Positions 25,854-49,413 of a DNA stretch of 64,000 nucleotides are shown here, one piece after another. Both the position numbers and the translations under genes were made by a program. The notes beneath the pieces are model-generated. The model saw only the letters and a program-made list of their open reading frames with translations, was not told the origin of the DNA and made no database searches. Origin of the DNA: an uncultured Bacteroidaceae bacterium (lineage in GTDB: Bacteria; Bacteroidota; Bacteroidia; Bacteroidales; GCA-2748055); NCBI GenBank assembly GCA_964526475.1, contig CAZGKF010000005.1, forward strand, positions 5,270-69,269, in the 5' to 3' direction. The number at the start of each line of letters is the position of its first letter. Position 1 is the stretch's first letter.

Positions 25854-26336
25854 ATGTCACTGAAAAATTACAACCTAACCATCTGTCAGAATTCCTGGCT
25901 GGTATTATTAAGACTGGCTATAGGCTGGCATTTTCTATACGAAGGATTGGTGAAAATATTCAATCCTGACTGGACTCCCTATGGATTTCTTATGGATTCA
26001 AAAGGTATGTTTGCATTTATATTTCATTGGATGGCATCCACTCCAAAAGTATTAACCGTAGTTGATCTGCTAAACGAATGGGGATTAACCCTGATAGGTC
26101 TGGGACTGGTGCTTGGAATCTTCACCAGGCTAGCTACCTGGGCGGGAATGTTATTGCTGGCATTCTATTACATTTCTCATCCTCCTTTAATTTCTTTGAA
26201 CTATGCTCTGCCTTCTGAGGGGGCTTATTTTATCGTTGACAAGGTACTGATCGAGTTTATCGCTCTGGGAGTACTGTCTGTGTTCCCAACCGGAAAAATA
26301 ATCGGGTTTGACCGTATAATTTTTAAAAATAAATAA
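25854..26336 (+). CDS. DoxX-family integral membrane protein
   Basis: 160 aa with four predicted TM segments. LLRLAIGWHFLYEGLVK is typical of DoxX/DoxD-like proteins. Its stop abuts the next gene. Confidence 0.7.
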   Translation: MSLKNYNLTICQNSWLVLLRLAIGWHFLYEGLVKIFNPDWTPYGFLMDSKGMFAFIFHWMASTPKVLTVVDLLNEWGLTLIGLGLVLGIFTRLATWAGMLLLAFYYISHPPLISLNYALPSEGAYFIVDKVLIEFIALGVLSVFPTGKIIGFDRIIFKNK

Positions 26337-26348
26337 TTGTCTGTTTTT

Positions 26349-27929
26349 ATGGAAGAAAAGAAAAATAAGACTCCGGAAAATGATTCATCAAAGATTAACC
26401 GCCGGGATATTCTTAAGAGTATTGCAACTGTCCCTTTCCTGGGAGCTATTGCATATGGTTTATATAAGAAAAAAAGACACGAAAGTTACAAGCGTAATAT
26501 TATATTAAAGGAACTGGGAATGTCAAGTGAGGAACCCCTTGCAAAAGTATCCAGGTCTGAAGGAAAAGAGATACGAATAGGACTTATAGGTTATGGTATC
26601 CGGGGTAAGCAACTGGCCAAAGCCCTCGGATTTGCACATCCTTCCATGGTGGATGAATGGTACAAGGCAGCTCAGGATAATAAAAATGATTTACGCTATA
26701 TTGATTTTATTTCACAGGATGATCTCAATGTAAGAATCACTGCTGTTTGTGATGTTTTCGACACATATGGCAATATGGCCAGGGAAATGGCTGCAAATAT
26801 CAGGCGTGAAGGCTTAGAAGGAACATTAGGGGAAAAGCCAACCAGATATACCAGCTATAAAGATTTAATCGCTGCACCTGATGTGGATGCAGTAATTATT
26901 GCCACTCCCGATCACTGGCATGGACCCATGACTATTGAAGCTGCAAAAAATGGGAAACATGTATATTGCGAAAAGCCTTTAACATGGACTGTTGAGGAGA
27001 CCTATGAGGTTCGCAAAGTAATCAAAGAATCAGGTGTAACATTCCAACTGGGTCACCAGGGCCGTCATACTGATGCATATATCAAGGCACAGGAAGCTAT
27101 TGAAAAAGGGGTACTCGGACCGGTTAACCTGGTGGAAATAACCACAAACCGCAACCGTCTCAATGGAGCCTGGGTGTACCCCATCCATAAAGACGCCAAT
27201 CCTGATACCATAGACTGGAAACAATTCATCGGACCTGCACCCTGGCATGATTTCAGCCTGGAAAGATTTTTCCGATGGCGCTGCTGGTGGGATTACAGTA
27301 CCGGACTTTCCGGCGACCTGCTTACACATGAGTACGATGCCATCAACCAGGTTATGAGAATAGGCATCCCCTACTCTGCTGTCTCCACCGGAGGCATTTA
27401 TTTCTATAAAGACGGCCGAACGGTTCCAGATGTACTTACTACTGCTTTTGAATTTCCGGATAAAAATCTGACTTTGTTATACTCCGCCACACTTTCCAGT
27501 TCGAAGGACAGAGGAAAAGTAATTATGGGTCGCGATGCATATATGGAAATGGGGAACACACTTACTATCTATGCTGACCGGGGCTCCAACAACGTGCGGT
27601 ATGCTGACAAAATAGAGCAGGGAATTATCAAGCCTGAAATACCAATCTTCACATATATACCAGGCAAAAACGTTGACGCAGTCACCTCCCCCACCGAATT
27701 ATATTTTGCAGGAAGGGGGTTGTTATATACCTACAGGGGAGGTAAACGGGTAGATACAACACACCTGCATATCAAAGAATGGATCGATTGTATTCGTAAA
27801 GGGACACAACCCAGCTGTAATATTGATGAGGCATTTGATGAAGCCATCACTGCACATATGGGAACCCTGTCATACCACAATAAAAAACAAGTATTCTGGG
27901 ATAAGGAAAATGAGAAAATTATTGTTTAA
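26349..27929 (+). CDS. Gfo/Idh/MocA-family oxidoreductase with twin-arginine-type N-terminus
   Basis: SSKINRRDILKSIATVPFLGAIAYG, then IRIGLIGYGIRGKQL and IIATPDHWHGPMTIEAAKNGKHVYCEKPL. The ORF track starts at TTG 26337, immediately after the DoxX stop; the first ATG is 26349. Confidence 0.85.
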   Translation: MEEKKNKTPENDSSKINRRDILKSIATVPFLGAIAYGLYKKKRHESYKRNIILKELGMSSEEPLAKVSRSEGKEIRIGLIGYGIRGKQLAKALGFAHPSMVDEWYKAAQDNKNDLRYIDFISQDDLNVRITAVCDVFDTYGNMAREMAANIRREGLEGTLGEKPTRYTSYKDLIAAPDVDAVIIATPDHWHGPMTIEAAKNGKHVYCEKPLTWTVEETYEVRKVIKESGVTFQLGHQGRHTDAYIKAQEAIEKGVLGPVNLVEITTNRNRLNGAWVYPIHKDANPDTIDWKQFIGPAPWHDFSLERFFRWRCWWDYSTGLSGDLLTHEYDAINQVMRIGIPYSAVSTGGIYFYKDGRTVPDVLTTAFEFPDKNLTLLYSATLSSSKDRGKVIMGRDAYMEMGNTLTIYADRGSNNVRYADKIEQGIIKPEIPIFTYIPGKNVDAVTSPTELYFAGRGLLYTYRGGKRVDTTHLHIKEWIDCIRKGTQPSCNIDEAFDEAITAHMGTLSYHNKKQVFWDKENEKIIV

Positions 27930-28085: not shown

Positions 28086-28119
28086 ATGGGGGGTGGTCCT
28101 GGATGTAAAAATAGAAGAA

Positions 28120-29904
28120 ATGATAAATTTTCTGTCTTATTTATTAACATGGATTTGTCTTCTGACAAGTACTCTTTCCTCTGGTTCTCCTCTGAAAATA
28201 GGACTGGGGCAATTTCATGATATGGGCAGCTTTGAAGCAAACAGGGATAAAATCCTATCCATGATGGATAAAGCTGCCGAAAATGCATGCGATCTGGTGG
28301 TATTCCATGAATATGCCCTTGTTGATCCGGCTTTATTGGCAACAAAGGCTCAGTATGATGAGGCTATTGAGCAGATAAAAGCAAAAGCTGCTGATTTAAG
28401 TTTATTTGTTATTTGTGGGGTGAATTACAGGGAAAGCGATATACCGGTTAAACACAAAAGTCGAAACCTTATAATAAATGCATCAGGGATGCAGGAAAGC
28501 TTTTACCGCAAAAACATTGAAATACCCAAACCTTTCTATATTAATGATATCCCGTGTCATTCACTTATATGTGCCGATCGCTGGTTCCTTGAGATGGCCG
28601 ATCTCTTTTGCCTGGTAAAAGGTTCAAAGATCATAATTGATGTTTCAGGTGGACACGGAGGAGACGATGGTCGTCCTGATTTGCGCTGGATAAGATACCG
28701 TTCATGGGCCCAAAGAACCAATGCATTTGTCATAATTGTAAATCCTCCCCATAGAAATACAGCTGATTTCATGGGAAATAAGCCATGGGGAGGGCATAGT
28801 GCTGTTATTAATCCCGATGGCACTTTTTATGCTCAAACCTCTTTCCAGGATGATACCCTGGTTATTGCAAGCATTGATCCTGACCATGCTACACTTGCAA
28901 TGGCTAAAGAAAGGAGAAATAACACAGTTTTTAAGTCATTCTGGGATTTCGGGGAAAATATTCTTGAAGGGGATGTTCAGAAAATGGAACCTTTTAAGGT
29001 ATATACATCAAACCTTACTTCTGTGAAAGTTGCGGCAGTTCAAATGGTCTGTTCAAGGGCTATCTCAGAAAATGTTACATCAATCCTTCGATATATTAAG
29101 GAAGCTGCACAAAACGGAGCAGATTTAGTTGTATTTCCGGAATTGGCAGTAACTGGCCCTATTCGGGAAGATATTGAAAAAGCAACACATAAAGAACTGA
29201 ATAAAGCCTTGATCCGTATTCAGAAGCCAGCGAAAAAATATCAGATTACTGTTGTATTCGGAATGCCTTTTCTGAATGACAGCAAATCCAGAAAAAACAG
29301 CGCATGGGTAGTTGGTCCAGAAGGAAAAATTCTCACACGGTACGACCAGATAGCATTAAATGATAAAAGCCTGTTCAAACCAGGAAATATTGCGAAATCT
29401 ATGTGGTTTAAGGTTAAAGGAGTTTATTCCACACTTTCCATTGGCAAAGATGCAGATTATCCTGAAATAACGATACTGGCCGGTGCAAAAGGTACCCAGA
29501 TGCATTTTCATATTTCCTGTGAAATAAATCACAATAATGACTACGAAATCATTCGTAGACAAAAAGGCTTGAATCTGATAGCTCCTGCCAGGTTCGGAGC
29601 AATTGTAAATACCGGGAAATCTGTAAACTCAGGCACTGACAATCTATTTGCCGGAGGAAGTATGATAGGCATCCGGGTTGGAGGACATAATATACCTGAC
29701 CCGGGAGGTATTGAAACCTATCTCCCTTACACATCCAGTATCTTAACTTCTGCCGGATCAGGACAGGAAATCCTTTACGGAACTTACACAGCAACCCGGA
29801 CAAATAATACATTATCCTGGTTAAATAGTGTACGAAAAAATTCACGTCCCGAATGGTTCGAATGGATAAAGAAAGGAGTAAATATAATTAGTAACAATCT
29901 ATAA
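28120..29904 (+). CDS. Exported protein with two tandem carbon-nitrogen hydrolase (nitrilase-superfamily) domains
   Basis: Signal-like N-terminus from ATG 28120 (MINFLSYLLTWICLLTSTLSS); the track starts at GTG 28093. Domain 1 has DLVVFHEYAL / FYRKNIEI / HSLICADRWF. Domain 2 has VKVAAVQM, DLVVFPELAVTG / TRYDQIAL / TLSIGKDADYPE. Confidence 0.75.
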   Translation: MINFLSYLLTWICLLTSTLSSGSPLKIGLGQFHDMGSFEANRDKILSMMDKAAENACDLVVFHEYALVDPALLATKAQYDEAIEQIKAKAADLSLFVICGVNYRESDIPVKHKSRNLIINASGMQESFYRKNIEIPKPFYINDIPCHSLICADRWFLEMADLFCLVKGSKIIIDVSGGHGGDDGRPDLRWIRYRSWAQRTNAFVIIVNPPHRNTADFMGNKPWGGHSAVINPDGTFYAQTSFQDDTLVIASIDPDHATLAMAKERRNNTVFKSFWDFGENILEGDVQKMEPFKVYTSNLTSVKVAAVQMVCSRAISENVTSILRYIKEAAQNGADLVVFPELAVTGPIREDIEKATHKELNKALIRIQKPAKKYQITVVFGMPFLNDSKSRKNSAWVVGPEGKILTRYDQIALNDKSLFKPGNIAKSMWFKVKGVYSTLSIGKDADYPEITILAGAKGTQMHFHISCEINHNNDYEIIRRQKGLNLIAPARFGAIVNTGKSVNSGTDNLFAGGSMIGIRVGGHNIPDPGGIETYLPYTSSILTSAGSGQEILYGTYTATRTNNTLSWLNSVRKNSRPEWFEWIKKGVNIISNNL

Positions 29905-33957: not shown

Positions 33958-36384
33958 ATGAACAATTTTTTATTCTCATTTATACTCGCTGGCAGTTTCC
34001 TGTTCTCTCAGTGTACCCAACAGCCTTCCTCCGAAATGCCGGAACGTAACAGGCAACAAATTAACTTTAACTGGAAATTCTTTCCCGCTGATTCTGTTAA
34101 CGTAGAGCTATCCGATATTCAGGAAACTGATTGGCAGGATGTTAACCTCCCCCACGACTGGGCTATCGGAGAACCCGTGTCAGCAACAAATCCTTCCGGA
34201 GCACGGATGGGATATTTCCCCGGTGGTATTGGATGGTACAGGAAAATTCTACATCTCGGGGAAGAATACCGCGGTAAGAAAGTATTTATTGAATTCGATG
34301 GTATTTATATGAATTCCGATGTGTGGATAAACGGGCATCACCTTGGACACTTTTCCTCAGGATATGTCAGCCATTATTACGATCTGACTCCATACCTTAC
34401 CTTCGATACAGAAAATATCCTTGCCGTAAGGGTTGACAACAGCCACCAGCCTTCCGACAGGTGGTATGCAGGATGCGGTATCTACAGGCATGTATGGCTC
34501 ACCACAGCTGAAAAGGTTTATATTCCTGTTTGGGGAACATATATAACAACCCAACAAAAAGAAAATAATGCATCCATGGTGACACACCAGGTAAGCTTAA
34601 AAAATGAATCCGGAGAGAATTTCTCCGGAAACCTGATAACAAATATTTTGTATAAAGGAGAAACTGTAAAATCCATAAAAACTGATATTTCAGATCTTGA
34701 ACCCGGGTTAACTGAGGTGTTGACACAAGAAATTGAAATTAAAGACCCTAAACTCTGGTCGATTGAATCTCCGGAATTATATACCGCACATACCTCCATA
34801 ATTTCTTCAGATCAGAAGGCAATGGATAATTATTCAACGATTTTCGGCATAAGAGATATTCACATAGATACTACCGGATTATACCTTAACGGGGAAAGAA
34901 TAATACTTAAAGGAGTAAATATTCATCATGATGCAGGCTGTCTTGGGGCTGCCGTGCCCGACATGGCTGTGGAAAGAAGGCTCAGGATACTGAAAGAGAT
35001 GGGATGCAATACCATTCGTCTGAGTCACTATCCTCATGCTCCTGAACTCCTCGATATGTGCGACAGAATGGGTATTCTCACCATGAGTGAATTCGCAGAC
35101 CAGTGGGAAATGAAATTTTCAAATTATGGTGGAAAGGAAGATCCCTTTGTGGATACCTGGGAGCAAAATCTGAAAAATTTCATCAAAAGGGATAGAAACC
35201 ATCCTTCCGTTTTTATGTGGAGCCTGGGGAATGAAACAATGGAACAGCGGTACAATCCAAAAAGAGGTGTGGAGCTTCTTACAATGATGAGGGATTTTGT
35301 TCATGCTTATGAACCTTCCCGAAAAGTAACCTGTGCTATGGTACGTTCAGGAGGAGGTAACCGTCCATGGGAAGATCCTTCCAGTATGATACATTATACC
35401 GATATAACAAGTTATAATTACCGTACACACCGTTTTAAGGAATGGAAAGAGATGTTCCCGGAAATGATGTTTATTTCAACTGAAACACAAATGTATAACA
35501 ATGAATGGCCTCCTTCGCCTGATACTCTTGATTTTAGTAAGAATTCCTGGTTTGAACTTCAGGGTAAGGACTATATCCTCGGGCAATATATCTGGGCAGG
35601 CATTGATTATCTCGGGGAATCCAAAGGATGGCCCGACAGGGCATGTCCTGTAGGACTGTTGAACACCTGCGGATTCAGGAAACCTACGTCCTATTTCACC
35701 GAAAGTATATACTCAGATAAACCTATGGTATATTTAGCAGTACATGATGACCAGCTGGCTGACTCCTTATCTCAACTTAAACACTCTCATATACAGTGGT
35801 ATGAACCAGCCATTAAGTCACATTGGAATTACAGTCACGCTAAAGAAGCACAGCGCAAAGTATATGCTTTTACCAATTGTGAAAGTGTGAAATTATTGCT
35901 GAACGGGAAAGCAATTGAAGAAAAGAATCGTGCAGATTTTCCGGATCAGGTAATACGTTGGGAAGTTGATTTTGAACCAGGGGAAATTGTTGCCGTGGGA
36001 TTAAATAACGGAAACGAAGTATGCAGACATGCCTTACAAACTGCCGCAAAGCCGGAAAAAATTGTGCTGCTGCCCGATCATGAAACCCTGAAAGCCAACG
36101 GCCAGGATGTGTGTCATGTGGAAGTCAGACTCACTGATATGAACGGGATAGTCATCCCTGATGCAAAAAATCTTATTCGTTTCAGTATTGAAGGAGCAGG
36201 AAAAATAATTGGAGTAGATAACGGTGATGTAGCCGATCACTTTAACTTTAAAGGAAATGAAGTCCAATTGAGGAATGGCAAGTGCCTTGTCGTCGTGCAA
36301 TCTGATCTGGTAAAAGGATATGTTAAACTCACAGCCTCAGCTGACGGAATGGAGCCTGCATCTGTTGTTATTCAAACAGAATAA
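33958..36384 (+). CDS. Glycoside hydrolase family 2 (beta-galactosidase-like)
   Basis: INFNWKFF, DWQDVNLPHDW, GIGWYRK, FDGIYMNSDVWINGHHLG, NTIRLSHYPHAPELLDMCDRMGILTMSE, NHPSVFMWSLGNE, plus C-terminal Ig-like domains. Confidence 0.9.
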   Translation: MNNFLFSFILAGSFLFSQCTQQPSSEMPERNRQQINFNWKFFPADSVNVELSDIQETDWQDVNLPHDWAIGEPVSATNPSGARMGYFPGGIGWYRKILHLGEEYRGKKVFIEFDGIYMNSDVWINGHHLGHFSSGYVSHYYDLTPYLTFDTENILAVRVDNSHQPSDRWYAGCGIYRHVWLTTAEKVYIPVWGTYITTQQKENNASMVTHQVSLKNESGENFSGNLITNILYKGETVKSIKTDISDLEPGLTEVLTQEIEIKDPKLWSIESPELYTAHTSIISSDQKAMDNYSTIFGIRDIHIDTTGLYLNGERIILKGVNIHHDAGCLGAAVPDMAVERRLRILKEMGCNTIRLSHYPHAPELLDMCDRMGILTMSEFADQWEMKFSNYGGKEDPFVDTWEQNLKNFIKRDRNHPSVFMWSLGNETMEQRYNPKRGVELLTMMRDFVHAYEPSRKVTCAMVRSGGGNRPWEDPSSMIHYTDITSYNYRTHRFKEWKEMFPEMMFISTETQMYNNEWPPSPDTLDFSKNSWFELQGKDYILGQYIWAGIDYLGESKGWPDRACPVGLLNTCGFRKPTSYFTESIYSDKPMVYLAVHDDQLADSLSQLKHSHIQWYEPAIKSHWNYSHAKEAQRKVYAFTNCESVKLLLNGKAIEEKNRADFPDQVIRWEVDFEPGEIVAVGLNNGNEVCRHALQTAAKPEKIVLLPDHETLKANGQDVCHVEVRLTDMNGIVIPDAKNLIRFSIEGAGKIIGVDNGDVADHFNFKGNEVQLRNGKCLVVVQSDLVKGYVKLTASADGMEPASVVIQTE

Positions 36385-36614
36385 TTAGAGATTGCCTTCG
36401 GCAAGCTCGCTGAAGCCCGGTTCCTCACTGGCGTTACTAATGACAGCCACTAAATGATGGCTTACTACTATCTGGTTCTAACAATATTTCGTTCCGATGG
36501 GACTTTGAACAGGCTGTTACATCCAATAACAGCCAGGCTGCTATTGGAGAGGAGACCCCTCACTGACGTTCGGGGTGACACAGAATTTCTGGTAATTCCC
36601 GCATGTGTATTTAT

Positions 36615-37958
36615 TTAAACTCTGGGGGGAGCCCATCCCGGTGCGTAATCACGTTTCCAAAGCTTCATGGCTGCTTTATCCAGAATATGTCCATTCTTAG
36701 GGTTAACTTTAAGAGGTTTATTCACCCTGTGAGAAATATTAGCAAGATGGCAGAGGAGAACACTCTTTGCTTCTTCTTCAATTGGAGCATTTAAAGAAAC
36801 TTTGCCTCTTATGGCATTAAAAAAATTAATTATATGAAGGTCTGTCATCCCTCCACCGCCGCCAAGAGCTGTTCCCGATTCATCCAGTGTTGATTCAGCA
36901 CTTTTTATGAATTTACCGGCCCTATCAAACAGCTTATAACCATCCCGGTCAATATAAACAGTTCCCTCTGTTCCATATACAATAGTTCCGCGGCCTGTTC
37001 CGTAAGTTTTATAACCATTGCGACTGTTTCCATCCCATTTAATGATTTTATTTCCGGGGAACATAAAAGTAGCGTCCATATGATCATACATTGTCCATCC
37101 GTCATTAAGGAAATAACGTTTTTCAGCATCCACGAAGACGTGCTCAGGATATTCAACCTGCATAGCCCATCTTGCAACATCAAGTTCATGGGTTGCATTA
37201 TTTCCGGTCTCAGCTGTTCCCCAGTTCCACCCATACCAGTGCCAGTTATAATCCCAGGTATCGTGCATATATTCCCTGCGTGGCGCCGGTCCCTGAAAAA
37301 GTTCCCAGTCTAAACCAACTGGTGGAGCTGCTTTTTGAGGTATTGGCACTTCGCCCCGTGCAGCAGTATAAAATGTAAGCGCTTTATAGGGTTTGCCAAT
37401 GACTCCATTATGGATCTGTTTAATTATGTCAATAGTTTCAGGTGACGAGCGTTGCTGTACCCCAACCTGCATCACTTTATTATATTTCTTTTGAAGAACA
37501 ATCAATAATTCATCTTCATATGGATTATGGCTGGAAGGTTTTTCAAGGTAAACATGTTTCCCTGCCTCCATAGCCATCCATGCTCCGGTGGCATGCCAGT
37601 GATCGGGAGTAGCATTAAAAATAGCATCTACCTTTTTATCATCCAGCACTTTACGGATATCATTTTCCAATACCGGTTTATTATTTATCTTCCCCTCCAG
37701 TGCCTTTGCAACTCTTTCCCGCTGGCTCTGCATTACATCACATATATACAATAAATCAACATTATTTTCTTTTTTTATCACAGTTCCATAATAACCCGGC
37801 ACCCTTCTTCCACATCCAATAAAAGCAATATTTAACCGGTCGTTCGCCCCAATTATTCTTGCATAGCTCTTCGACGAGAAAGTCATTCCAACGCCACCTA
37901 TGGCAATAGCCGCAGCCCCTGTGGCTGTTTTTTTAATAAATTCTCTTCTTTTTGTCAT
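36615..37958 (-). CDS. Gfo/Idh/MocA-family oxidoreductase with twin-arginine signal
   Basis: MTKRREFIKKTATGAAAIAIGG, then LNIAFIGCGRR and FNATPDHWHATGAWMAMEAGKHVYLEKP. It is the last gene of a four-gene minus-strand cluster. Confidence 0.9.
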   Translation of the reverse strand: MTKRREFIKKTATGAAAIAIGGVGMTFSSKSYARIIGANDRLNIAFIGCGRRVPGYYGTVIKKENNVDLLYICDVMQSQRERVAKALEGKINNKPVLENDIRKVLDDKKVDAIFNATPDHWHATGAWMAMEAGKHVYLEKPSSHNPYEDELLIVLQKKYNKVMQVGVQQRSSPETIDIIKQIHNGVIGKPYKALTFYTAARGEVPIPQKAAPPVGLDWELFQGPAPRREYMHDTWDYNWHWYGWNWGTAETGNNATHELDVARWAMQVEYPEHVFVDAEKRYFLNDGWTMYDHMDATFMFPGNKIIKWDGNSRNGYKTYGTGRGTIVYGTEGTVYIDRDGYKLFDRAGKFIKSAESTLDESGTALGGGGGMTDLHIINFFNAIRGKVSLNAPIEEEAKSVLLCHLANISHRVNKPLKVNPKNGHILDKAAMKLWKRDYAPGWAPPRV

Positions 37959-37970
37959 TTTAATATATTT

Positions 37971-38810
37971 TTACATGGTTGATAATACTCCTCTAATATA
38001 CCCTATTGATTCAGCCATTCCTGGCAAGGGGTCGTCAGCATCTTTTTCATATTCCAGTGCCAGAGTCCCTGAATAATTCATCCTGATTACAGTTCCAATA
38101 AAAGAAGGGATATCAATAACACCCCTCCCTATCTCACAGGTCTTTCCTTGTGCATCGTTTAATGTTACATCTTTTATATGGATATCAAAGATCCTGTTAA
38201 AAAACTCAACTACATCCTTTTCGGGATTACCATTCATTCTGACTGTATGACCTATATCCAGACATAAGCCCATCCGTGGATCCATATTTTTTATAAGTGA
38301 ATAAGCACTCACAGCAGTGGGATATCTTTTATCTCCGGGTCCATGATTATGAATAGCAAGTTTAATATTATATTCCTGAACCTTCTTTTCAACATAAGCT
38401 AATAGCTCATGTTCAGGGACCCCGATTATCATCTTAAATTTTGCTTTTTTTGCATATTCAAAAGCCCTGTCTACCTCAGCCCTGGAAGTCATATATATTA
38501 CTCCTCCCCCATAAAGATTTATCCCTGCAGCTTCGCACTTCGAAAGAGTAGCAGAGATAAGCTCATCGGAAGCATCAAGTGGTAAATGAAAATCCTTGAA
38601 GGATATCTCCGAAATACCAAGTCTGCTGGTTATTTGCAAAGTGTCGTCGAGAGTAAATTTCCGTAAGGAATATGATGCAATACCTAAATCAAATGGAAAT
38701 TTTGAACTATCTGATGAGCTGCTACCAATATAAGCTGAAATTCCTTTAAAAGAGCCTGCAAGAATTCCTGCTCCGGATAAAACTAAAAAATCTCTTCTTG
38801 ATGATTTCAT
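37971..38810 (-). CDS. Xylose-isomerase-like TIM-barrel protein (sugar phosphate isomerase/epimerase family) with twin-arginine signal
   Basis: MKSSRRDFLVLSGAGILAG (the track starts 9 codons earlier, at 38837). Family motifs include LGISEISFKDFHL, IKLAIHNHGP, GLCLDIGH and GTLALEYE. Confidence 0.85.
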   Translation of the reverse strand: MKSSRRDFLVLSGAGILAGSFKGISAYIGSSSSDSSKFPFDLGIASYSLRKFTLDDTLQITSRLGISEISFKDFHLPLDASDELISATLSKCEAAGINLYGGGVIYMTSRAEVDRAFEYAKKAKFKMIIGVPEHELLAYVEKKVQEYNIKLAIHNHGPGDKRYPTAVSAYSLIKNMDPRMGLCLDIGHTVRMNGNPEKDVVEFFNRIFDIHIKDVTLNDAQGKTCEIGRGVIDIPSFIGTVIRMNYSGTLALEYEKDADDPLPGMAESIGYIRGVLSTM

Positions 38811-38919
38811 TATTTTATAGTTTAATTTTAATAACAAAAAGGGGAACTATTGTATAATAATGTAACATCCTTAATAACCCAAATATACTGTTTCATGTGC
38901 GAAAAACCAAATCAGCAAA

Positions 38920-39987
38920 TTAGATCATATCCTCGTATTTCCTTACCGCTTCAATAATTGCCATAAGATTTTCCCAGGGAACTTCGGGTTCAACTAAATG
39001 TGTTGGACCTAAAACAATACCTCCCCTTTTACCACATCTCTGCAGTCTGGAAAGACAAGTTTCAAAAACTTCTTCTGGAGTTCCATAAGGAAGCAGCTTT
39101 TGTGTTCCAACTGTTCCCCAGAAAGAAAGCCTGTCTCCGAATTTATCATGAACCTCATCAAAGCTCATACATTCGGGCTGAACAGGATTCAGGATATCAA
39201 CTCCGACTTCTATAAGTTGATCAATGAATGGGGTTACGTATCCACAGGAATGGTAAAAAACAAGTATATCCGGGTTAACAGACCTGGCTGTATTAATTAC
39301 TTCATGTATCCTTGGTTTAAGCCATTTTTCCCAAAGCTCTATATCAAGCATTATGGAGTTCTGTGTTCCAATATCATCTCCCAGCGAGATAATGTCCACC
39401 CCGGCCTCAGCATATGTTTGAGCTTTGGTGCAGGCATACCGGGTGATCTTATCCAGCAGGGCCTTAGCCCTTTCATCCTCCATCATCATATCCATCATCA
39501 ACTCCTCCATGGAACGAAGATACCAGGAAGCCTCCCAGACTGTCATCTGCATAAATGCAAAGGCTGCCAGCCCTTGCTCATGAAGATCAGTAACTTTCCG
39601 GGTGATCCTTTTCTTTTCTTCCTCTTCAACTGAAGGATAAGGAAAGTCAAGAATCTCATTCATCTCCGCCCCTTTCAAGGGATGATGCATCCTGGTCATG
39701 TGAAATGCTGCAGGAGAACCCTTGGAATGTCCAATGCCATACTCATCAAATTTTGTATCAGAAGGAAGAGTTTCTCTTCTGAAAAGCTGAAAGCCGTCAG
39801 AATAATTAATTTTTGGTTTTAACTCAAAGGAGCGGTGGCTAAGACCGAAATAGCTTTCATAATCAGTATGCCCAAACCTTTCTTTAAAATCATTAATTTG
39901 TGATTCACATAATACATAATCTACAGGAATCTTTTCAAATCCTTTTCTACGTAATGTTCTTATAATATTCTCTCTGGGAGTTAGCAT
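38920..39987 (-). CDS. Uroporphyrinogen-decarboxylase (URO-D) family protein, no signal peptide
   Basis: MLTPRENIIRTLRRKGFEKIPVD..., GVDIISLGDDIGTQNSIMLDIELWEKWLKP and FYHSCGYVTPFIDQLIEVGVDILNPVQPE match the URO-D/MtaA-like TIM-barrel pattern. Confidence 0.7.
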   Translation of the reverse strand: MLTPRENIIRTLRRKGFEKIPVDYVLCESQINDFKERFGHTDYESYFGLSHRSFELKPKINYSDGFQLFRRETLPSDTKFDEYGIGHSKGSPAAFHMTRMHHPLKGAEMNEILDFPYPSVEEEEKKRITRKVTDLHEQGLAAFAFMQMTVWEASWYLRSMEELMMDMMMEDERAKALLDKITRYACTKAQTYAEAGVDIISLGDDIGTQNSIMLDIELWEKWLKPRIHEVINTARSVNPDILVFYHSCGYVTPFIDQLIEVGVDILNPVQPECMSFDEVHDKFGDRLSFWGTVGTQKLLPYGTPEEVFETCLSRLQRCGKRGGIVLGPTHLVEPEVPWENLMAIIEAVRKYEDMI

Positions 39988-40017
39988 AATTGTACAAGGT
40001 AAAAATTTGATATTAAA

Positions 40018-40935
40018 CTACCATCCGAAAACTTCTTTGACATACTCAGCACTTAATCTCCAGTTTTCATTCATAGTATTTTGAGGAACATAGTCTCTGG
40101 GATAAGCCAGTTCGATAGCTGCATGACCCTGAAAGTTTTTTTCCTTTAACGCATTTGCAATAGCCGGAAAATCAGTTACTCCCTGCCCAACATATTCGGT
40201 CCATGTTCCATCTTCAAACTGATCCCTGATGTGTAAAAATACTATCTGACTGCCAAATTCATTTATGAATGATACAGGGTCCACACCTCCACGGATGAGC
40301 CAGTTTAAATCAGGTCCAAGATTAGCATCAGGAATACGTGCGAGGGTACCTCTCAGATCATGCATATCGTTTGCAACTTCATACGTATGATTATGCAGGT
40401 TTGGAACTACATTATGATCTTCACATATTTTAAATATCTTTTTCAATAATTCTGCCTGGCTATCCAACTCCGCTTCAGTCTTCATCCGGTTTGCATTACC
40501 AACTGAAATACCGAATGTTTTTCCTTTCAATTCACTTAAGCGGGAAATTACCATTTGAGCCTCCCCGAGAATTTGCTGATGATTTTCAGAATTCCACATA
40601 TTACCTCCGAAAGACGTGCCTGTAATGGGTAAATTATACTTTTCAGCCACGCTTCCTATATTCTCCACCGCATCTTCATTCATTAAATTCACTGCCATTA
40701 ATTCAATACCATCAACACCCGAAGCCTGCAAGTCACTGAAAGCAGTATCAAAAACAGGCGTTGCATCATGCCTGGGAGGAAATGCACTGGCATATACCCA
40801 TAAATGAGCAGATAATATGACTTTTGCCTTGTCTTTTTTTCCCGGAGCAGCGCAGCCAAAAAAACTATTAGAGACAAGAGCTCCTCCCAGTAAAATACCT
40901 GATTCTTTTAGAAATTTTCTTCTGGAAGAAACCAT
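40018..40935 (-). CDS. Xylose-isomerase-like TIM-barrel protein (sugar phosphate isomerase/epimerase family) with twin-arginine signal
   Basis: MVSSRRKFLKESGILLGGALV is a consensus S-R-R-x-F-L-K. Family motifs include GVDGIELM, VVPNLHNHTYE, FLHIRDQ and GHAAIELAYP. It is the first gene of the minus-strand cluster. Confidence 0.85.
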   Translation of the reverse strand: MVSSRRKFLKESGILLGGALVSNSFFGCAAPGKKDKAKVILSAHLWVYASAFPPRHDATPVFDTAFSDLQASGVDGIELMAVNLMNEDAVENIGSVAEKYNLPITGTSFGGNMWNSENHQQILGEAQMVISRLSELKGKTFGISVGNANRMKTEAELDSQAELLKKIFKICEDHNVVPNLHNHTYEVANDMHDLRGTLARIPDANLGPDLNWLIRGGVDPVSFINEFGSQIVFLHIRDQFEDGTWTEYVGQGVTDFPAIANALKEKNFQGHAAIELAYPRDYVPQNTMNENWRLSAEYVKEVFGW

Positions 40936-41259
40936 TTGATTTTTTTTTTGGTAAATACATGATAATACAAATTAAATTAAACCAGAAAGGAAAAATAATA
41001 TAAGTACAAACAATTCACTCATAGCGAATATATATAAATAGGCTGAAACAAATATAAACCATAGTATTTTAAAATCCTATATCTCCAAAATTTTTCTACC
41101 TGCGTTAAGAAAAGTTACAACAGTTCCAAAAACTATCCCCTGAAAACCGGGATACATAAACGAGTCTGCTGTAATCTGACTATGCCGGCTAACTCAAATA
41201 ATTAAATCTAATTTAAAAATCAAATCAGGTCTGATTAAATTTGATTATTTTTATATTTA

Positions 41260-41478
41260 ATTTTAACCATCATCCTTTTCGTTAATTTCCGAAAAAGAAA
41301 AACCTATTCTGTAGGAAAAGATCTGCCATTTTGGGTAGCCCTTTCATTACTTAGTGGTTCACGCCGTTCTTCTGGCGGGAGTTTCGGTAGTTTTTCAAAT
41401 GGAAGTGGCAGCTTTGGTGGTTTCTCAGGTGGCATGGGAGGTAGATTGGGGGGTGGCGGAGCAGAAGGCAGGTGGTAA
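41260..41478 (+). pseudogene. Orphan C-terminal tail resembling TPM-domain (YgcG-like) proteins: TM helix + Gly/Ser-rich end
   Basis: A frame-1 ORF with no start codon before the TM segment reads ...DLPFWVALSLLSGSRRSSGGSFGSFSNGSGSFGGFSGGMGGRLGGGGAEGRW*. The listed ORF 41354..41548 is a different frame over the same DNA. Confidence 0.35.
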
Positions 41479-41490
41479 AACTCATTTGGA

Positions 41491-42573
41491 ATGTATAAAT
41501 TTGTTTTTCTTATCCTTATATTTAATTCTCATGCGGTTAACGCAATAGTTGAGGATACCAGCCGGATAAAACTCCTGTTTGCCGGCGATGTTATGGGTCA
41601 TGATGCCCAGATTGAAAGTGCCTTTGATCCATTAAAGGATATTTATAATTATGATACTTGTTTTTATTTTGCGAAAAAACATATTCAAAAAGCTGATATA
41701 GCAGTCGCTAACCTGGAAGTTACTCTTGCTGGTACACCTTATAAAGGATACCCTCTGTTCTCCTCACCTGATGAGCTTGCGGATGCTCTGAAAAAAGCTG
41801 GTTTCAATCTCCTTCTTACCGCGAACAATCATTCAATGGACAGATCTTCAGCAGGTCTGGAAAGAACCATCAGAGTACTTAACGAGAAAGGCATAATAAG
41901 AACCGGGACATTTATTAACCAGAATCAAAGAAATAAGGAGTATCCTCTGATAATTGAAAAAAACAATATACGGCTCGCTATCCTGAATTATACTTATGGA
42001 ACCAACGGCATACCTGTTATTTATCCCAATATTGTCAACCTGATCGATACAGCCCAAATAGCCAGAGACCTGGAAAAGGCAGCAAGTGCAGATCCTGATT
42101 TTATTTTTGTCACAATACACTGGGGAACTGAATATGAACGTCAGGAAAATTCCGTGCAGGAGAAGCTTGCAAGGTTTATGTTCCAACATGGTGCAAATGC
42201 CATCATCGGGTCTCATCCACATGTTGTTCAGCCAATCAGGGTAATTAACAATCCGGATGAGAGCAAATCAGAAGATGTTAACCTGGTTGCATACAGTCTG
42301 GGAAATTTTATTTCAAACCAAAGGAAAATTCATACTGACGGGGGAATTTTACTGGAAATAGATCTTGAAAAAACTGATATAACACGTATCAAAGCCTGGT
42401 CTACTATTCATGTCTGGGTTTACCGACCTCATTACCAGAACAGATATAATTTCATCCTCCTGCCAGGAGATGACCCGGAATATCTTAAGGAATTATTTGA
42501 AATGACAGAATCTGACCGCAATGCGTTCAAGCTGTTTATTAATTCGGTAAAAGTGGAAAATTGTGTATATTAG
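41491..42573 (+). CDS. CapA/PGA_cap-family metallophosphatase-fold protein (poly-gamma-glutamate capsule synthesis protein-like)
   Basis: Signal peptide. Motifs LLFAGDVMGH, ADIAVANLEVTLAG, NLLLTANNHSMDRS, VTIHWGTEYE and AIIGSHPHVVQP. Confidence 0.8.
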   Translation: MYKFVFLILIFNSHAVNAIVEDTSRIKLLFAGDVMGHDAQIESAFDPLKDIYNYDTCFYFAKKHIQKADIAVANLEVTLAGTPYKGYPLFSSPDELADALKKAGFNLLLTANNHSMDRSSAGLERTIRVLNEKGIIRTGTFINQNQRNKEYPLIIEKNNIRLAILNYTYGTNGIPVIYPNIVNLIDTAQIARDLEKAASADPDFIFVTIHWGTEYERQENSVQEKLARFMFQHGANAIIGSHPHVVQPIRVINNPDESKSEDVNLVAYSLGNFISNQRKIHTDGGILLEIDLEKTDITRIKAWSTIHVWVYRPHYQNRYNFILLPGDDPEYLKELFEMTESDRNAFKLFINSVKVENCVY

Positions 42574-46434: not shown

Positions 46435-47412
46435 TTAATTGATGTCAAATTCCGGATCTGCATTACTCAGGAGGGTTATCATTTTATCGTACTCATCAGC
46501 AGACAAGTCGTTAGCGTAAAAATTAACAGGATTAACTTTTCTGTTGTTTGCAATCACCTCATAGTGCAGATGTGGACGGGTGGAAAGGCCTGTACTACCT
46601 ACATAGCCAATCACATCCCCTCTTTTAATGCGTTCACCTCTCTTTACAATCACTTTTTCGAGATGTCCGTAAATCGTTTTATAACCATACCCATGATCGA
46701 GCAATATCCTTATACCAAGCCCCCCCGGACTATATCCTGCCTCAACAACTACCCCATCGGCGGTAGCAAATATACTGGTACCGCGGTCACAGGTAAAATC
46801 AACTCCTTCATGCATGCGTATTGTTTTGAGTATAGGGTGTAGACGCATCCCGAAAGCAGATCCGAATCTAATTAGCTGATTAATACTTACAGGTTGGATA
46901 GCAGGCCGGGCAGCCAATCTTTTTTCTTTGCTTTTTGCCATTTCAATTACTTTATCAAAAGATTGTGACTGAACAACGGATTTCTTCGCCAGAATATCCA
47001 ATGACCCGTTAATAGCATTAAGTGAACCGGCAAATTTTGATCCGGTAAAAAGATCACTTTTTTCTGTACCTCCGAAACCAGCTTCTCTTTGTGATGGAGG
47101 CAAAGGATCAACTTCGAAATAAGTTCTGTAAATATGGTCATCATTATAGCTTAAATCCTCAAGGACTTCTTTCATTTTCAATACTTCACTCTTCATTAAA
47201 ATAAGTTGCAATTCAAGCTTTGCCTGGGTCTCAGACAAATCCTTCACTTTTGGAGATTCAAATACATCGTGTCCTAAAAACAAAACAGAAAATGTGAAAA
47301 TCCCGATAATAAAAAGAAAAGGTAAGCTTCTGAACAGATTCTGCCTGAAAGAATACCTTTCTCTCTCAAATTTAAGAGTTTCCTGATTAAACTTATATAT
47401 GTCCCTTGCCAT
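46435..47412 (-). CDS. M23-family (LytM-domain) peptidoglycan metalloendopeptidase, tandem copy 3
   Basis: An N-terminal TM segment, a coiled coil, then the LytM motifs HEGVDF ... GSTGLSTRPHLHYEV. Confidence 0.9.
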   Translation of the reverse strand: MARDIYKFNQETLKFERERYSFRQNLFRSLPFLFIIGIFTFSVLFLGHDVFESPKVKDLSETQAKLELQLILMKSEVLKMKEVLEDLSYNDDHIYRTYFEVDPLPPSQREAGFGGTEKSDLFTGSKFAGSLNAINGSLDILAKKSVVQSQSFDKVIEMAKSKEKRLAARPAIQPVSINQLIRFGSAFGMRLHPILKTIRMHEGVDFTCDRGTSIFATADGVVVEAGYSPGGLGIRILLDHGYGYKTIYGHLEKVIVKRGERIKRGDVIGYVGSTGLSTRPHLHYEVIANNRKVNPVNFYANDLSADEYDKMITLLSNADPEFDIN

Positions 47413-47441
47413 GAAAAATAAAAGTAAATAAAAAACAAAAC

Positions 47442-48407
47442 CTAATCAAAAGATTGACCTGATTTTATTGACAATTCTATCATTTTATCATATTCTTCAG
47501 GTGATAACTCCAGAAAATAATAATTTACCGGGTTAACAGTTTGTCCATTCAATAAAACTTCATAATGCAAATGTGGAGCAACGGAAAGGCCGGTATTCCC
47601 AACCCATCCTATAACATTTCCTCTCTTAACTTTCCGACCTCTCTTAACATTAAAACCTTCCAGATGAGAGTATTTCGTTTTATATCCAAAACCGTGATCG
47701 ACAACAATAGTATTACCACTTCCTCTTCCGGTATTATTCACTTCTTCAATCATCCCATCACCGGTAGCAAAAACCGGAGTACCTGTTGGAGCAGTGAAAT
47801 CCATACCGGAATGAAATTTACGAATCTTGTAAATTGGATGGATACGGTATCCATAACCGGATGCAGCTCTGATGAGCTCTTTGTTGGCTATAGGTTGAAT
47901 GGCAGGAATACATTGAAGCATTTCCTGTTTTCTGTTTGCCAGCTCAAAAAGATTTCTGTATTCAGCCGAATTAAGGGAAACATCCCTGAATATATCACCC
48001 AGTAAAAATTTAGTTTCAAATACAAGTGCCTCGTTCCCCATCTCCATAAAACGGAAAACAGACCTTGAATCACCTTCCGAAAGGGTTATTCCTGATCTTC
48101 TGACCGGTTCAGCTTCAAAAATCATTCTGTAAATATTCTCATCATGTTTTTTAAGGCTTTTCAACACTGTATCGATCTGGTTGAATCTTCTTGAAAGGAA
48201 ACTATAATCATGAATGAGCGACTTGTTTTCCTGCCTGAGTTGCCTCTCGTACGGAGTGTCAAAAAACACTGAATATAATACATTTAAAAGAATAGCTATG
48301 GTAAAGCCTGCGGTTAAAAAGACAATACCCCTGAGGAGTCTGCCTTTAAGGTTATTATTAACCCTGGAATAGTTTATTCTCTCAGCATCAAATGTATACT
48401 TAGCCAT
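47442..48407 (-). CDS. M23-family (LytM-domain) peptidoglycan metalloendopeptidase, tandem copy 2
   Basis: Same architecture as copy 3: HSGMDF ... GNTGLSVAPHLHYEV. Confidence 0.9.
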   Translation of the reverse strand: MAKYTFDAERINYSRVNNNLKGRLLRGIVFLTAGFTIAILLNVLYSVFFDTPYERQLRQENKSLIHDYSFLSRRFNQIDTVLKSLKKHDENIYRMIFEAEPVRRSGITLSEGDSRSVFRFMEMGNEALVFETKFLLGDIFRDVSLNSAEYRNLFELANRKQEMLQCIPAIQPIANKELIRAASGYGYRIHPIYKIRKFHSGMDFTAPTGTPVFATGDGMIEEVNNTGRGSGNTIVVDHGFGYKTKYSHLEGFNVKRGRKVKRGNVIGWVGNTGLSVAPHLHYEVLLNGQTVNPVNYYFLELSPEEYDKMIELSIKSGQSFD

Positions 48408-48459
48408 AATACAGAAGGATAATTCTGCCTGCTAAAATAATAAAAAAACACAAAAATTT

Positions 48460-49413
48460 TCAGTTTTCTGTCTGGGCAACTATTTCACCATACTCTTCAG
48501 GAGAGAGATTTTCATAATAAAAATACATGGGATGGAGAGGCTTCCCATCCAGTCTGACCTCATAGTGCAGATGCGGACCGGTTGATCTGCCAGTACTTCC
48601 GAGCAATCCGATCAACTGGCCTCTTTTAACTCTCTGTCCGGGTTCCACAATAATCTTGTGCAGGTGTGCATAACGGGAAGAATATCCGTAACCATGATTA
48701 ATAAGAATTTCCTTACCGTAACCATATCTGCTTATTGAAGCTTCAGAAACAATTCCATCTCCCGTTGCATAAATTTTCAATCCTATCCTTCCTGCAATAT
48801 CAATTCCCTGATGCATCCTCCTGCTTTTTGTGAAAGGGTCCCATCTTATACCGTATGTAGAAGTAAGCCAGAACGAATCAACAGGCGATATAGGCTGAAT
48901 GGAGGGTTTGCCGGCAATAAGCTCCTGATGCATATTCGCTATCTGAAATATATCATAAAGAGAGATTGTTTGTATCTTAACTTTATTGGCAAGCTTTTCC
49001 AGATACTTTGCTGTTTCATTAACATAATCGACTGATCTTGTCAATAGCATATCGCTGAAATTCTCTGACCCCCCGGAACCCGCTTCCCTTATAGAGGGTG
49101 GGATAGGAGTAAGATCAAGAACAGAACGGTAAAGCCAGTCATCACGCTTTTCAACTTCATATAAGAATCCTTCCGCACTCTTTATCTGGCTTCTAAGCTC
49201 ATTGTAAGCTGTCTGAAGCTCACTATTTTTCTCAATAAAATAATTAACCTTGGGAGAATCAGCAATATGGTCAAATCCAATCCTAAAAGCTGCAGACAGA
49301 ATTAAAAGAATAATCATTATAAATAATGTATCCCCAATCCTTTTTCTAAATGATTTATTTACCTTCTCAAATCGTAAGGTTTCAGGGTTAAGGTAGTATT
49401 TCGTTTTAAACAT
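48460..49413 (-). CDS. M23-family (LytM-domain) peptidoglycan metalloendopeptidase, tandem copy 1
   Basis: Same architecture as copies 2 and 3: HQGIDI ... GSTGRSTGPHLHYEV. Confidence 0.9.
   Translation of the reverse strand: MFKTKYYLNPETLRFEKVNKSFRKRIGDTLFIMIILLILSAAFRIGFDHIADSPKVNYFIEKNSELQTAYNELRSQIKSAEGFLYEVEKRDDWLYRSVLDLTPIPPSIREAGSGGSENFSDMLLTRSVDYVNETAKYLEKLANKVKIQTISLYDIFQIANMHQELIAGKPSIQPISPVDSFWLTSTYGIRWDPFTKSRRMHQGIDIAGRIGLKIYATGDGIVSEASISRYGYGKEILINHGYGYSSRYAHLHKIIVEPGQRVKRGQLIGLLGSTGRSTGPHLHYEVRLDGKPLHPMYFYYENLSPEEYGEIVAQTEN

Follow-up and report, generated by a model that had tools for sequence, protein, structure and literature searches.

Cleavage of glycosides by oxidation and subsequent elimination has been described in gut bacteria since 2021-2024. 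In Bacteroides thetaiotaomicron (BT2156-BT2159) and Alistipes (AL1-AL4), dehydrogenases of the Gfo/Idh/MocA family (hereafter Gfo) that are exported by the twin-arginine translocation (Tat) pathway are encoded with exported xylose-isomerase-like lyases, a DUF1080 protein (BT2157/AL2), and a cytosolic reductase of the BT2159 type (Liu et al. 2021, PMC8121099; Nasseri et al. 2024, 10.1101/2024.03.25.586180). The latter study also describes Gfo, triosephosphate isomerase (TIM) barrel, and DUF1080 components as interchangeable modules, and reports the glucuronide-cleaving cluster P2B11 with the layout Iso1-Oxido1-Oxido2-Iso2, in which two TIM barrels labeled 'sugar phosphate isomerase' accompany Gfo-type oxidoreductases in a layout that lacks DUF1080; each of the two barrels enhances cleavage, and the cluster acts on alpha as well as beta anomers (10.1101/2024.03.25.586180). 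In Agrobacterium tumefaciens, the TIM barrel AtOGE (8BVK) is an O-glycoside beta-eliminase (Bitter et al. 2023, PMC10628242). Here, we analyzed a 64-kb stretch of DNA from an uncultured Bacteroidaceae bacterium (contig CAZGKF010000005.1; the whole stretch is hereafter the window), which carries a quartet of genes for two TIM barrels (TIM1 and TIM2), a Gfo protein of 447 residues (Gfo447), and a protein of the uroporphyrinogen decarboxylase (URO-D) superfamily. TIM1, TIM2, and Gfo447 (hereafter the trio) probably constitute a periplasmic set that would cleave glycosides by oxidation and then elimination, with a functionally separate, cytoplasmic URO-D gene among them.

The co-directional arrangement of the four genes on the minus strand, as described in the initial annotation, is confirmed by the open reading frames, their spacings, and their Pfam families, and the gene calls agree with independent calls on the same DNA from a public assembly. 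The genes are as follows.

40018-40935, minus strand: TIM1, 305 residues, N-terminus MVSSRRKFLKESG, xylose-isomerase-like TIM barrel with a predicted Tat signal
38920-39987, minus strand: URO-D gene, 355 residues, URO-D-superfamily protein without a signal
37971-38810, minus strand: TIM2, 279 residues from the ATG, N-terminus MKSSRRDFLVLSG, TIM barrel of the 3LMZ family with a predicted Tat signal
36615-37958, minus strand: Gfo447, 447 residues, N-terminus MTKRREFIKKTATG, Gfo/Idh/MocA oxidoreductase with a predicted Tat signal

The spacings are 30 nt between TIM1 and the URO-D gene, 109 nt between the URO-D gene and TIM2, and 12 nt between TIM2 and Gfo447. The second spacing would be 82 nt if TIM2 began at the alternative TTG at 38837; the homologues begin at M-K-x-S-R-R, and the independent gene call also uses the ATG.

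The trio resembles the BT2156-BT2159 and AL1-AL4 systems in that a predicted Tat-exported Gfo dehydrogenase and an exported xylose-isomerase-like lyase candidate (H-x-H/D..W/H) are encoded beside glycan-utilization genes, and the window also holds a member of the BT2158 family, Gfo494. Unlike these systems, the window lacks a DUF1080 gene and a cytosolic BT2159-type reductase, the quartet has two TIM barrels and an inserted URO-D gene, and the lyase candidates carry Tat rather than Sec signals. A tblastn search of the window for DUF1080 and PhyH found no homologue. P2B11 likewise combines two TIM barrels with Gfo-type enzymes and lacks DUF1080, a likeness of the published gene layout; it comes, however, from a Gram-positive organism and has two oxidoreductases and no URO-D gene, whereas the quartet has one Gfo enzyme and three Tat signals. 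The initial annotation had placed the pairing of two different TIM barrels with a URO-D-family protein outside the described systems. Two different TIM barrels beside Gfo enzymes are already present in P2B11, and clusters of the order DUF1080-Gfo-TIM1-TIM-PhyH recur among relatives, whose loci show the same interchange of modules. Both TIM barrels are also similar to AtOGE in their small size (~260-300 residues) and in the matching spacing of His-x-His, Asp, His, and Glu (E-values of 1.2e-3 for TIM2 and 1.3e-4 for the TIM1 profile), although sequence identity is low, and AtOGE is paired with an FAD-dependent glycoside 3-oxidase and acts on plant phenolic glucosides. Judged from sequence, the two TIM barrels are remote relatives of the characterized lyases, and the trio probably belongs to the oxidation-elimination route that is already known.

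Export of the trio is predicted from its N-termini, which carry the following features.

40849-40935, minus strand: twin-arginine signal of TIM1, residues 1-29 (SRRKFLK, a hydrophobic region, and FFGC)
38733-38810, minus strand: twin-arginine signal of TIM2, residues 1-26 (SRRDFL, a hydrophobic region, and ISA)
37860-37958, minus strand: twin-arginine signal of Gfo447, residues 1-33 (RREFIKK, a hydrophobic region, and SYA)

In the TIM1 family, the Arg pair and the next Phe are invariant in 24 of 24 homologues, while the flanking residues vary. An N-terminal RR-x-[FILV] motif stands ahead of a hydrophobic stretch in 78 of 80 TIM2 homologues, and the Arg pair is present in 14 of 15 aligned sequences of the Gfo447 family, the sole exception being truncated at its N-terminus. 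Gfo447 is the only protein of the quartet that passes the NCBIfam model TIGR01409 (TAT_signal_seq; 18.2 bits against a cutoff of 16.7). The twin-arginine N-termini noted at the outset on three proteins are thus conserved among homologues beyond chance, and TIM1, TIM2, and Gfo447 are predicted Tat-exported proteins. The URO-D protein has an Arg pair as well (R13-R14), but since charged residues follow it and no hydrophobic stretch is present, this protein has no signal, in agreement with the initial annotation. In TIM1, the FFGC motif (residues 25-28, 40852-40863, minus strand) directly follows the hydrophobic part of the Tat signal. Both SRRKFLK and FFGC are kept in a congeneric contig from a second species (88% nucleotide identity; hereafter L172), and the Cys of FFGC is mostly missing from more distant homologues. 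TIM1 may therefore be a Tat-exported lipoprotein.

Gfo447 matches the Pfam family GFO_IDH_MocA (PF01408; 5e-13), and the NCBIfam model that fits it best is BT_2158_fam 'glycoside 3-dehydrogenase' (NF058561), to which residues 3-275 align with 138 bits. Its best solved relative is AL3 (8tdf/8tdh; 1.5e-27, residues 38-302), which ranks ahead of DgpA. The EKP, GPAP, and G-x-x-x-H motifs of the two proteins are aligned, and the catalytic His would correspond to H257 of Gfo447. Orthologues with 65-73% identity were found across Bacteroidota, and the gene directly ahead of them is a TIM2 orthologue (in L169 and in L171 from Spirosoma) or a DUF1080 gene (in Mangrovibacterium, L170). The loci of relatives also hold DUF1080, GH10, GH78, and GH97 genes. 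These matches make Gfo447 a candidate periplasmic glycoside (C3) dehydrogenase with bound NAD(P).

TIM1 matches the Pfam family AP_endonuc_2 (PF01261; 1.3e-19, 71.3 bits against a cutoff of 31.1), and its predicted model is an eight-stranded barrel with a mean predicted local distance difference test (pLDDT) value of 84.6. When the TIM1 family profile was compared with the PDB, the best match was 8tct (1.9e-7), and the top six also include 8tcs and 8tcd, which are closely similar to it, and the AtOGE structure 8bvk (1.3e-4), with 8z1i (Art22) and 3lmz ranking between them. According to the structure descriptions in the Foldseek output, 8tct is the BT1 lyase and 8tcr/8tcd are the AL1 lyase. Residues H181-N-H183, E186, D209..W212, H235, R237, D238, and E275 are invariant among 24 TIM1 homologues. 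The metal and substrate ligands of AL1/BT1 are His178/182, His180/184, Asp211/214, Trp214/217, and His237/240, together with a catalytic Glu (10.1101/2024.03.25.586180), and the AtOGE site consists of His132, His134, Asp163, His189, and Glu233 (PMC10628242). H181/H183, D209/W212, and H235 of TIM1 align with the AL1/BT1 ligands, with the HNH, D..W, and HI(K/R)D motifs matched; E275 is assigned as the catalytic Glu by spacing only.

The gene context of TIM1 is similar in kind. Orthologues with 56-64% identity lie in two clusters (L083 and L175) in which an AraC gene precedes the run DUF1080-Gfo-TIM1-second TIM-PhyH, and the DUF1080 protein of these clusters belongs to the 3-keto-disaccharide hydrolase family. 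In Pedobacter and Flavobacterium (L085-L088), the order is PhyH-TIM1-Gfo-GMC oxidoreductase-gluconate-2-DH subunit 3. Altogether, TIM1 is linked to a Gfo gene in five contexts of relatives. We consider TIM1 a candidate metal-dependent 3-keto-glycoside 1,2-lyase or glycal hydratase.

TIM2 likewise matches PF01261 (1.7e-19, 71.0 bits against a cutoff of 31.1). Its PDB matches are 3lmz (2.4e-73 over 239 residues), 4kw2, 3p6l, and AtOGE 8bvk (1.2e-3). TIM2 belongs to the 3LMZ/4KW2/3P6L family; 3LMZ was deposited as a 'putative sugar isomerase' and 3P6L as a 'sugar phosphate isomerase/epimerase'. The three structures, which we take to be structural-genomics entries from Parabacteroides distasonis, carry no assigned function and thus provide a fold but no chemistry for TIM2. 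Its HNH, LDIGH, HIKD, and LEYE motifs form the same H-x-H/D/H/E pattern, with no Trp. The inspection of metal ligands that had been proposed for the TIM barrels therefore finds the H-x-H...D...H...E site of the 3-keto-glycoside 1,2-lyases in both. Among 80 metagenome loci with TIM2 homologues, a Gfo gene adjoins the homologue in at least 38, and the TIM2-Gfo447 pair is kept in L169 (70% and 73% identity, respectively) and L171 (45% and 67%). TIM2 is a candidate for a second 3-keto-glycoside lyase or hydratase.

On the analogy of the characterized systems, from which all catalytic steps and the substrate are taken, the trio could operate as follows. Gfo447 would be exported in the folded state via Tat with a tightly bound nicotinamide cofactor, and would oxidize a ring hydroxyl group (most likely that at C3) on the sugar at the non-reducing end of oligosaccharides imported by SusC/D; Gfo494, encoded in the adjacent polysaccharide utilization locus (PUL), may perform the same oxidation. 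TIM1 and TIM2 would act as divalent-metal enzymes (H-x-H/D/H plus the catalytic Glu) that remove H2 and split off the aglycone by elimination across C1-C2. The two barrels probably prefer different anomers or linkages, and either or both may hydrate the glycal. This would stand in for the DUF1080 enzyme, for which the window has no gene. The 3-keto sugar would either re-oxidize the dehydrogenase or be imported and reduced. The URO-D protein would stay in the cytoplasm and act on some imported small molecule through its His-x-Cys...Glu...His site. The oxidation and elimination that the initial annotation suggested for this locus thus find support in the families and gene contexts, yet the route itself has already been described.

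Several observations weigh against an oxidation-elimination function of the trio. The 138 bits of Gfo447 lie far under the BT2158 equivalog cutoff of 750, which makes it a relative and not a member of that family, and Gfo447 and all its orthologues have Asn where AL3 has the sugar-binding Asp248 (segment G-D-M-A-C-H). The sequence identity of TIM1 and TIM2 to any characterized lyase is at most ~19%. Outside the genus, the nearest homologues of TIM2 (L090-L092, 69-70% identity) lack an adjoining Gfo gene. The URO-D gene follows only 30 nt after TIM1, and a terminator-like site was sought on the minus strand in the gaps of the quartet and not seen, so that co-transcription and a shared role are conceivable. 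Finally, the template modeling (TM) scores of the TIM1 model in Foldseek are alike (0.65-0.71) for ketose 3-epimerases, Art22, YcjR, IolE, and BT1/AL1.

Since these TM scores are equal, the fold alone cannot separate a lyase from an epimerase or isomerase. The Foldseek comparison that had been suggested for the models of TIM1 and the URO-D protein accordingly recovers the barrel fold of the one and an MtaA-like fold of the other, but it does not distinguish lyase from epimerase. The trio could instead be a periplasmic set for epimerization or isomerization of keto sugars, like YcjQ/YcjR/YcjS of E. coli, which would leave the glycosidic bond unbroken. Ketose 3-epimerases and YcjR (6wn6, a 3-keto-D-glucoside 4-epimerase) match the fold of TIM1 as well as BT1/AL1 do, and weak NCBIfam matches to 3-epimerase models are also present. 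On the other hand, epimerases and YcjR typically have Glu at the position of the first metal ligand, whereas this ligand is the His of H-x-H here, as in AL1/BT1 and AtOGE. The lyases rank first by sequence profile, weakly (at or near the top for TIM1, with E-values from 1.9e-7 to 1.3e-4) against the equal fold scores to epimerases, and the orthologues adjoin genes for DUF1080 lyases/hydratases. Epimerization thus seems unlikely to be the function of the trio. Memberships in IolE/IolG, hydroxypyruvate isomerase, and 3-epimerase families were rejected for these proteins, with NCBIfam scores far under the cutoffs.

The spacing behind TIM1 and the lack of a terminator-like site in the gaps also favor a reading in which all four genes serve one pathway, and the URO-D enzyme processes the product of the trio, for example by demethylating or decarboxylating the imported sugar. 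In L172, the order TIM1-UROD-TIM2-Gfo is kept together with the convergent GH2 gene (84% identical), the dN/dS value (ratio of nonsynonymous to synonymous substitution rates) of the URO-D gene is 0.077, and URO-D homologues elsewhere are found in carbohydrate loci. However, L172 is the only other place with the quartet. Orthologues of TIM1, TIM2, or Gfo447 are near the URO-D gene in 0 of 80 loci from other species, URO-D genes occur in 0 of the 80 TIM2 loci, and none was found in the seven different gene contexts surveyed for orthologues of TIM1 and Gfo447. When 927 proteins neighboring URO-D were searched with hidden Markov models, one weak TIM-like protein emerged, with a Gfo gene ~2 kb away. 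Furthermore, the URO-D protein and the trio are predicted to reside in different compartments, and the TAnnTTTG box within the 109-nt gap would permit a split into two units. A single pathway for all four genes therefore appears improbable.

The quartet built around URO-D, which the initial annotation proposed as a module and whose conservation it made a test, is not conserved: the neighborhoods link URO-D to the trio in one congeneric contig only. For all four genes, dN/dS against L172 is 0.08-0.16, and all four are under purifying selection. The URO-D gene is functional and has been retained here; its place among the trio, however, is an arrangement at the genus level and not a new module. 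The association has not been described before, yet it is not conserved, and we propose that co-transcription or co-regulation of URO-D with the trio is confined to this genus.

Degradation of a cyclitol or another non-glycoside polyol in the periplasm, like that of inositol by IolG with IolE/IolI, is very improbable, since the IolG and IolE models, although top or second-ranked among the NCBIfam matches and accompanied by IolI and IolE structures among the matches, score only 72.5 against 355 bits and 33-35 against 290 bits, all three proteins carry Tat signals, and the neighbors are GH2, GH3, GH120, and SusC/D genes in the window and DUF1080, GH10, GH78, and GH97 genes in relatives. The hydroxypyruvate isomerase model Hyi reaches 17 bits against 353, so that the trio does not group with the cytoplasmic inositol or hydroxypyruvate enzymes, a grouping that was named at the outset as evidence against the periplasmic set.

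If the trio does cleave glycosides by oxidation and elimination, the route would extend beyond gut Bacteroides and Alistipes to sediment-type Bacteroidales, and would reach three subfamilies without a characterized member, namely TIM1, the 3LMZ-like TIM2, and the highly conserved Gfo447. The orphan structures 3LMZ, 4KW2, and 3P6L would gain a function. The practical value lies in annotation, where the current labels are 'sugar phosphate isomerase/epimerase' and 'Gfo/Idh/MocA oxidoreductase'.

The URO-D protein matches the Pfam family URO-D (PF01208; 4.5e-24) in residues 153-351 only, the C-terminal half, and its N-terminal 150 residues are unlike any Pfam model. We rejected HemE (TIGR01464), which aligns with the C-terminal half only and scores 27.7 bits against a cutoff of 302.95. 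The best NCBIfam models are of the MtaA type, all far under their cutoffs (58.5 against 235.4 bits for TIGR01463 and 62.1 against 400 bits for NF040654). MtaA, a methylcobalamin:coenzyme M methyltransferase (4AY7), and MtaA-like 'Mlp' proteins are treated by Kountz and Balskus (PMC10418091). The only PDB sequence match of the URO-D protein is MtaA 4ay7, and the best fold match is likewise MtaA; the predicted model is of moderate quality (pLDDT 69.8, with the N-terminal 100 residues below 50) and served solely to match its fold to those of MtaA, HemE, and MetE. H246-x-C248 and the following Glu align with the HxC zinc motif of MtaA, while the later Cys of MtaA (PGCG), its third ligand, is replaced by His in P-T-H330. 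Among 75 homologues with 43-75% identity, H246, E272, and H330 are present in 75 of 75, C248 in 73, and C273 in 74. The URO-D protein is thus probably an MtaA-like, metal (Zn)-dependent methyl or alkyl transferase. Of the two activities that had been suggested for it, methyl transfer is favored by the match to MtaA, and decarboxylation is not, given the HemE score.

The gene neighborhoods of the URO-D family set it apart from MtaA in part. A sister clade with 56-59% identity lies directly downstream of a gene for a B12-binding protein, together with a second URO-D paralogue, CobW, and homocysteine methyltransferase, and in the survey of 80 loci from other species a corrinoid protein or the activase RACo occurs in 14, mostly in this clade. 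In contrast, a tblastn search of the 64-kb window for a corrinoid (B12-binding) protein or RACo found none, and the usual neighbors of URO-D genes are an SSF symporter, GH2, and AraC, not methylotrophy genes: a sodium:solute symporter gene is directly downstream in 18 of the 80 loci, AraC is a neighbor in 17, and a LacZ-like GH2 gene in ~10. The family is large, with 3041 matches at E<=1e-5 and members in at least 599 GTDB species genomes. The clade spans seven phyla of glycan degraders, namely Bacteroidota, Lentisphaerota, Kiritimatiellota, Verrucomicrobiota, Planctomycetota, Spirochaetota, and Bacillota.

We also considered that the URO-D clade comprises Zn-/corrinoid-dependent methyltransferases for O2-independent demethylation of O-methylated sugars, such as methyl-galactose of algal or plant glycans, and was recruited into the keto-sugar operon in this genus. 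Such enzymes would be an anaerobic counterpart of the P450 sugar demethylases. Hints in this direction are the invariant H-x-C...E...H site, MtaA as the best relative, and the position of the sister clade directly after B12-binding proteins, with RACo, CobW, and homocysteine methyltransferase genes close by. A further hint is that the closest URO-D clade stands directly before an SGLT-type sodium:solute symporter gene, accompanied by beta-galactosidase-like GH2 genes, sulfatase genes, and, at one locus, a galactonate-type oxidative pathway. The proposal is doubtful. Literature searches that paired URO-D-family proteins with sugars, PULs, or demethylation yielded no relevant paper. As a widespread and unstudied group with ties to carbohydrate loci, the clade is a more interesting lead than the quartet.

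Two further arrangements were observed around URO-D homologues. In L173 (5099-14100), a gene for a 74%-identical protein lies in a locus in which AraC precedes genes for an RraA-like aldolase, a galactonate-dehydratase-like enolase, an SDR protein, the URO-D protein, an SSF symporter, a sulfatase, and a LacZ-like GH2 protein; this layout suggests a link of the URO-D gene to the oxidative catabolism of a galactose-type sugar. Nine loci (L022, L025, L027-L029, L031, L032, L035, and L037, around position 10000) share one conserved cluster with a 1078-residue FAD/Fe-S protein, a nitroreductase, a B12-binding protein, a URO-D protein 56-59% identical to that of the window, a 540-residue URO-D/thioredoxin-like fusion, CobW, and a homocysteine S-methyltransferase, which resembles a corrinoid-based methyl-transfer system that supplies methionine synthesis. 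Corrinoid machinery also stands next to the TIM2 family. In L090 (784-5246), a 69%-identical TIM2 homologue is encoded directly downstream of genes for a CdhD-like corrinoid Fe-S protein and a RACo activase, and DUF4861 and sulfatase genes come next; corrinoid genes and this TIM family are juxtaposed here a second time and independently.

Transcription of the quartet was examined through its promoter-like sites.

41049-41056, minus strand: candidate promoter TATATTTG, a TAnnTTTG box of the Bacteroidota -7 type, ~115 nt upstream of the TIM1 start codon
38880-38887, minus strand: possible internal promoter TATATTTG, a pattern match only, inside the 109-nt gap between the URO-D gene and TIM2

The second box would make TIM2-Gfo447 a possible transcription unit of its own. 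Across the window, 8 TAnnTTTG boxes were found against 6.6 expected, which is no enrichment and makes the boxes weak evidence for promoters. In a scan for sigma-70 promoters and terminators, the counts were near background, and the sigma-70 model is ill-suited to Bacteroidota. An Rfam search of 36300-41600 at E<=1 matched no family, and therefore no cobalamin riboswitch is present there.

Next to the quartet lies the PUL, with the following features.

4146-36384, plus strand: adjacent PUL with ECF sigma factor, FecR, SusC, SusD, DUF3823, GntP, two 860-residue-type proteins, a transaldolase-like (TAL-like) protein, Gfo494, GH3, DoxX, Gfo530, CN-hydrolase, GH120, and GH2
21860-23344, plus strand: Gfo494, predicted Tat-signal glycoside 3-dehydrogenase of the BT2158 family, N-terminus SSISRRKFIGMTAV, adjoining the GH3 gene
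33958-36384, plus strand: GH2 gene with Pfam GH2 domains, which ends the PUL and is convergent with the quartet

Since the quartet is convergent with this last gene, it is a unit separate from the PUL. Gfo494 scores 777.9 bits with NF058561 against the cutoff of 750 and is thus a member of that family.

Within the PUL, tandem paralogues of 860 and 854 residues (14296-16878 and 16947-19511, plus strand) are 70% identical and have Sec-type signals; neither matches a Pfam or NCBIfam model, and the 860-residue protein has no PDB sequence match. They may represent an undescribed carbohydrate-active family. At 25854-27929 (plus strand), a DoxX gene (stop at 26336) is followed at once by the gene for a 530-residue Gfo/Idh/MocA protein, Gfo530 (start at 26337). 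Gfo530 has an RR motif and then a transmembrane-like segment, and is the third RR-bearing Gfo protein of the window; the DoxX-Gfo530 pair may be a membrane-anchored, quinone-linked sugar dehydrogenase. A 603-residue protein with a C-terminal carbon-nitrogen hydrolase domain (28093-29904, plus strand) and the transaldolase-like protein (20381-21436, plus strand) are unusual components of a PUL.

On the other side of the quartet, the 555-nt region between TIM1 and a PGA_cap gene contains a glycine/serine-rich frame at 41300-41476 (plus strand) that ends in SGGSFGSFSNGSGSFGGFSGGMGGRLGGGGAEGRW and a stop codon. No ATG, GTG, or TTG start in this frame yields 30 or more residues, and the frame may be a gene remnant. 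Three tandem genes for M23 peptidase-domain proteins of 317-325 residues are located at 46435-49413 on the minus strand.

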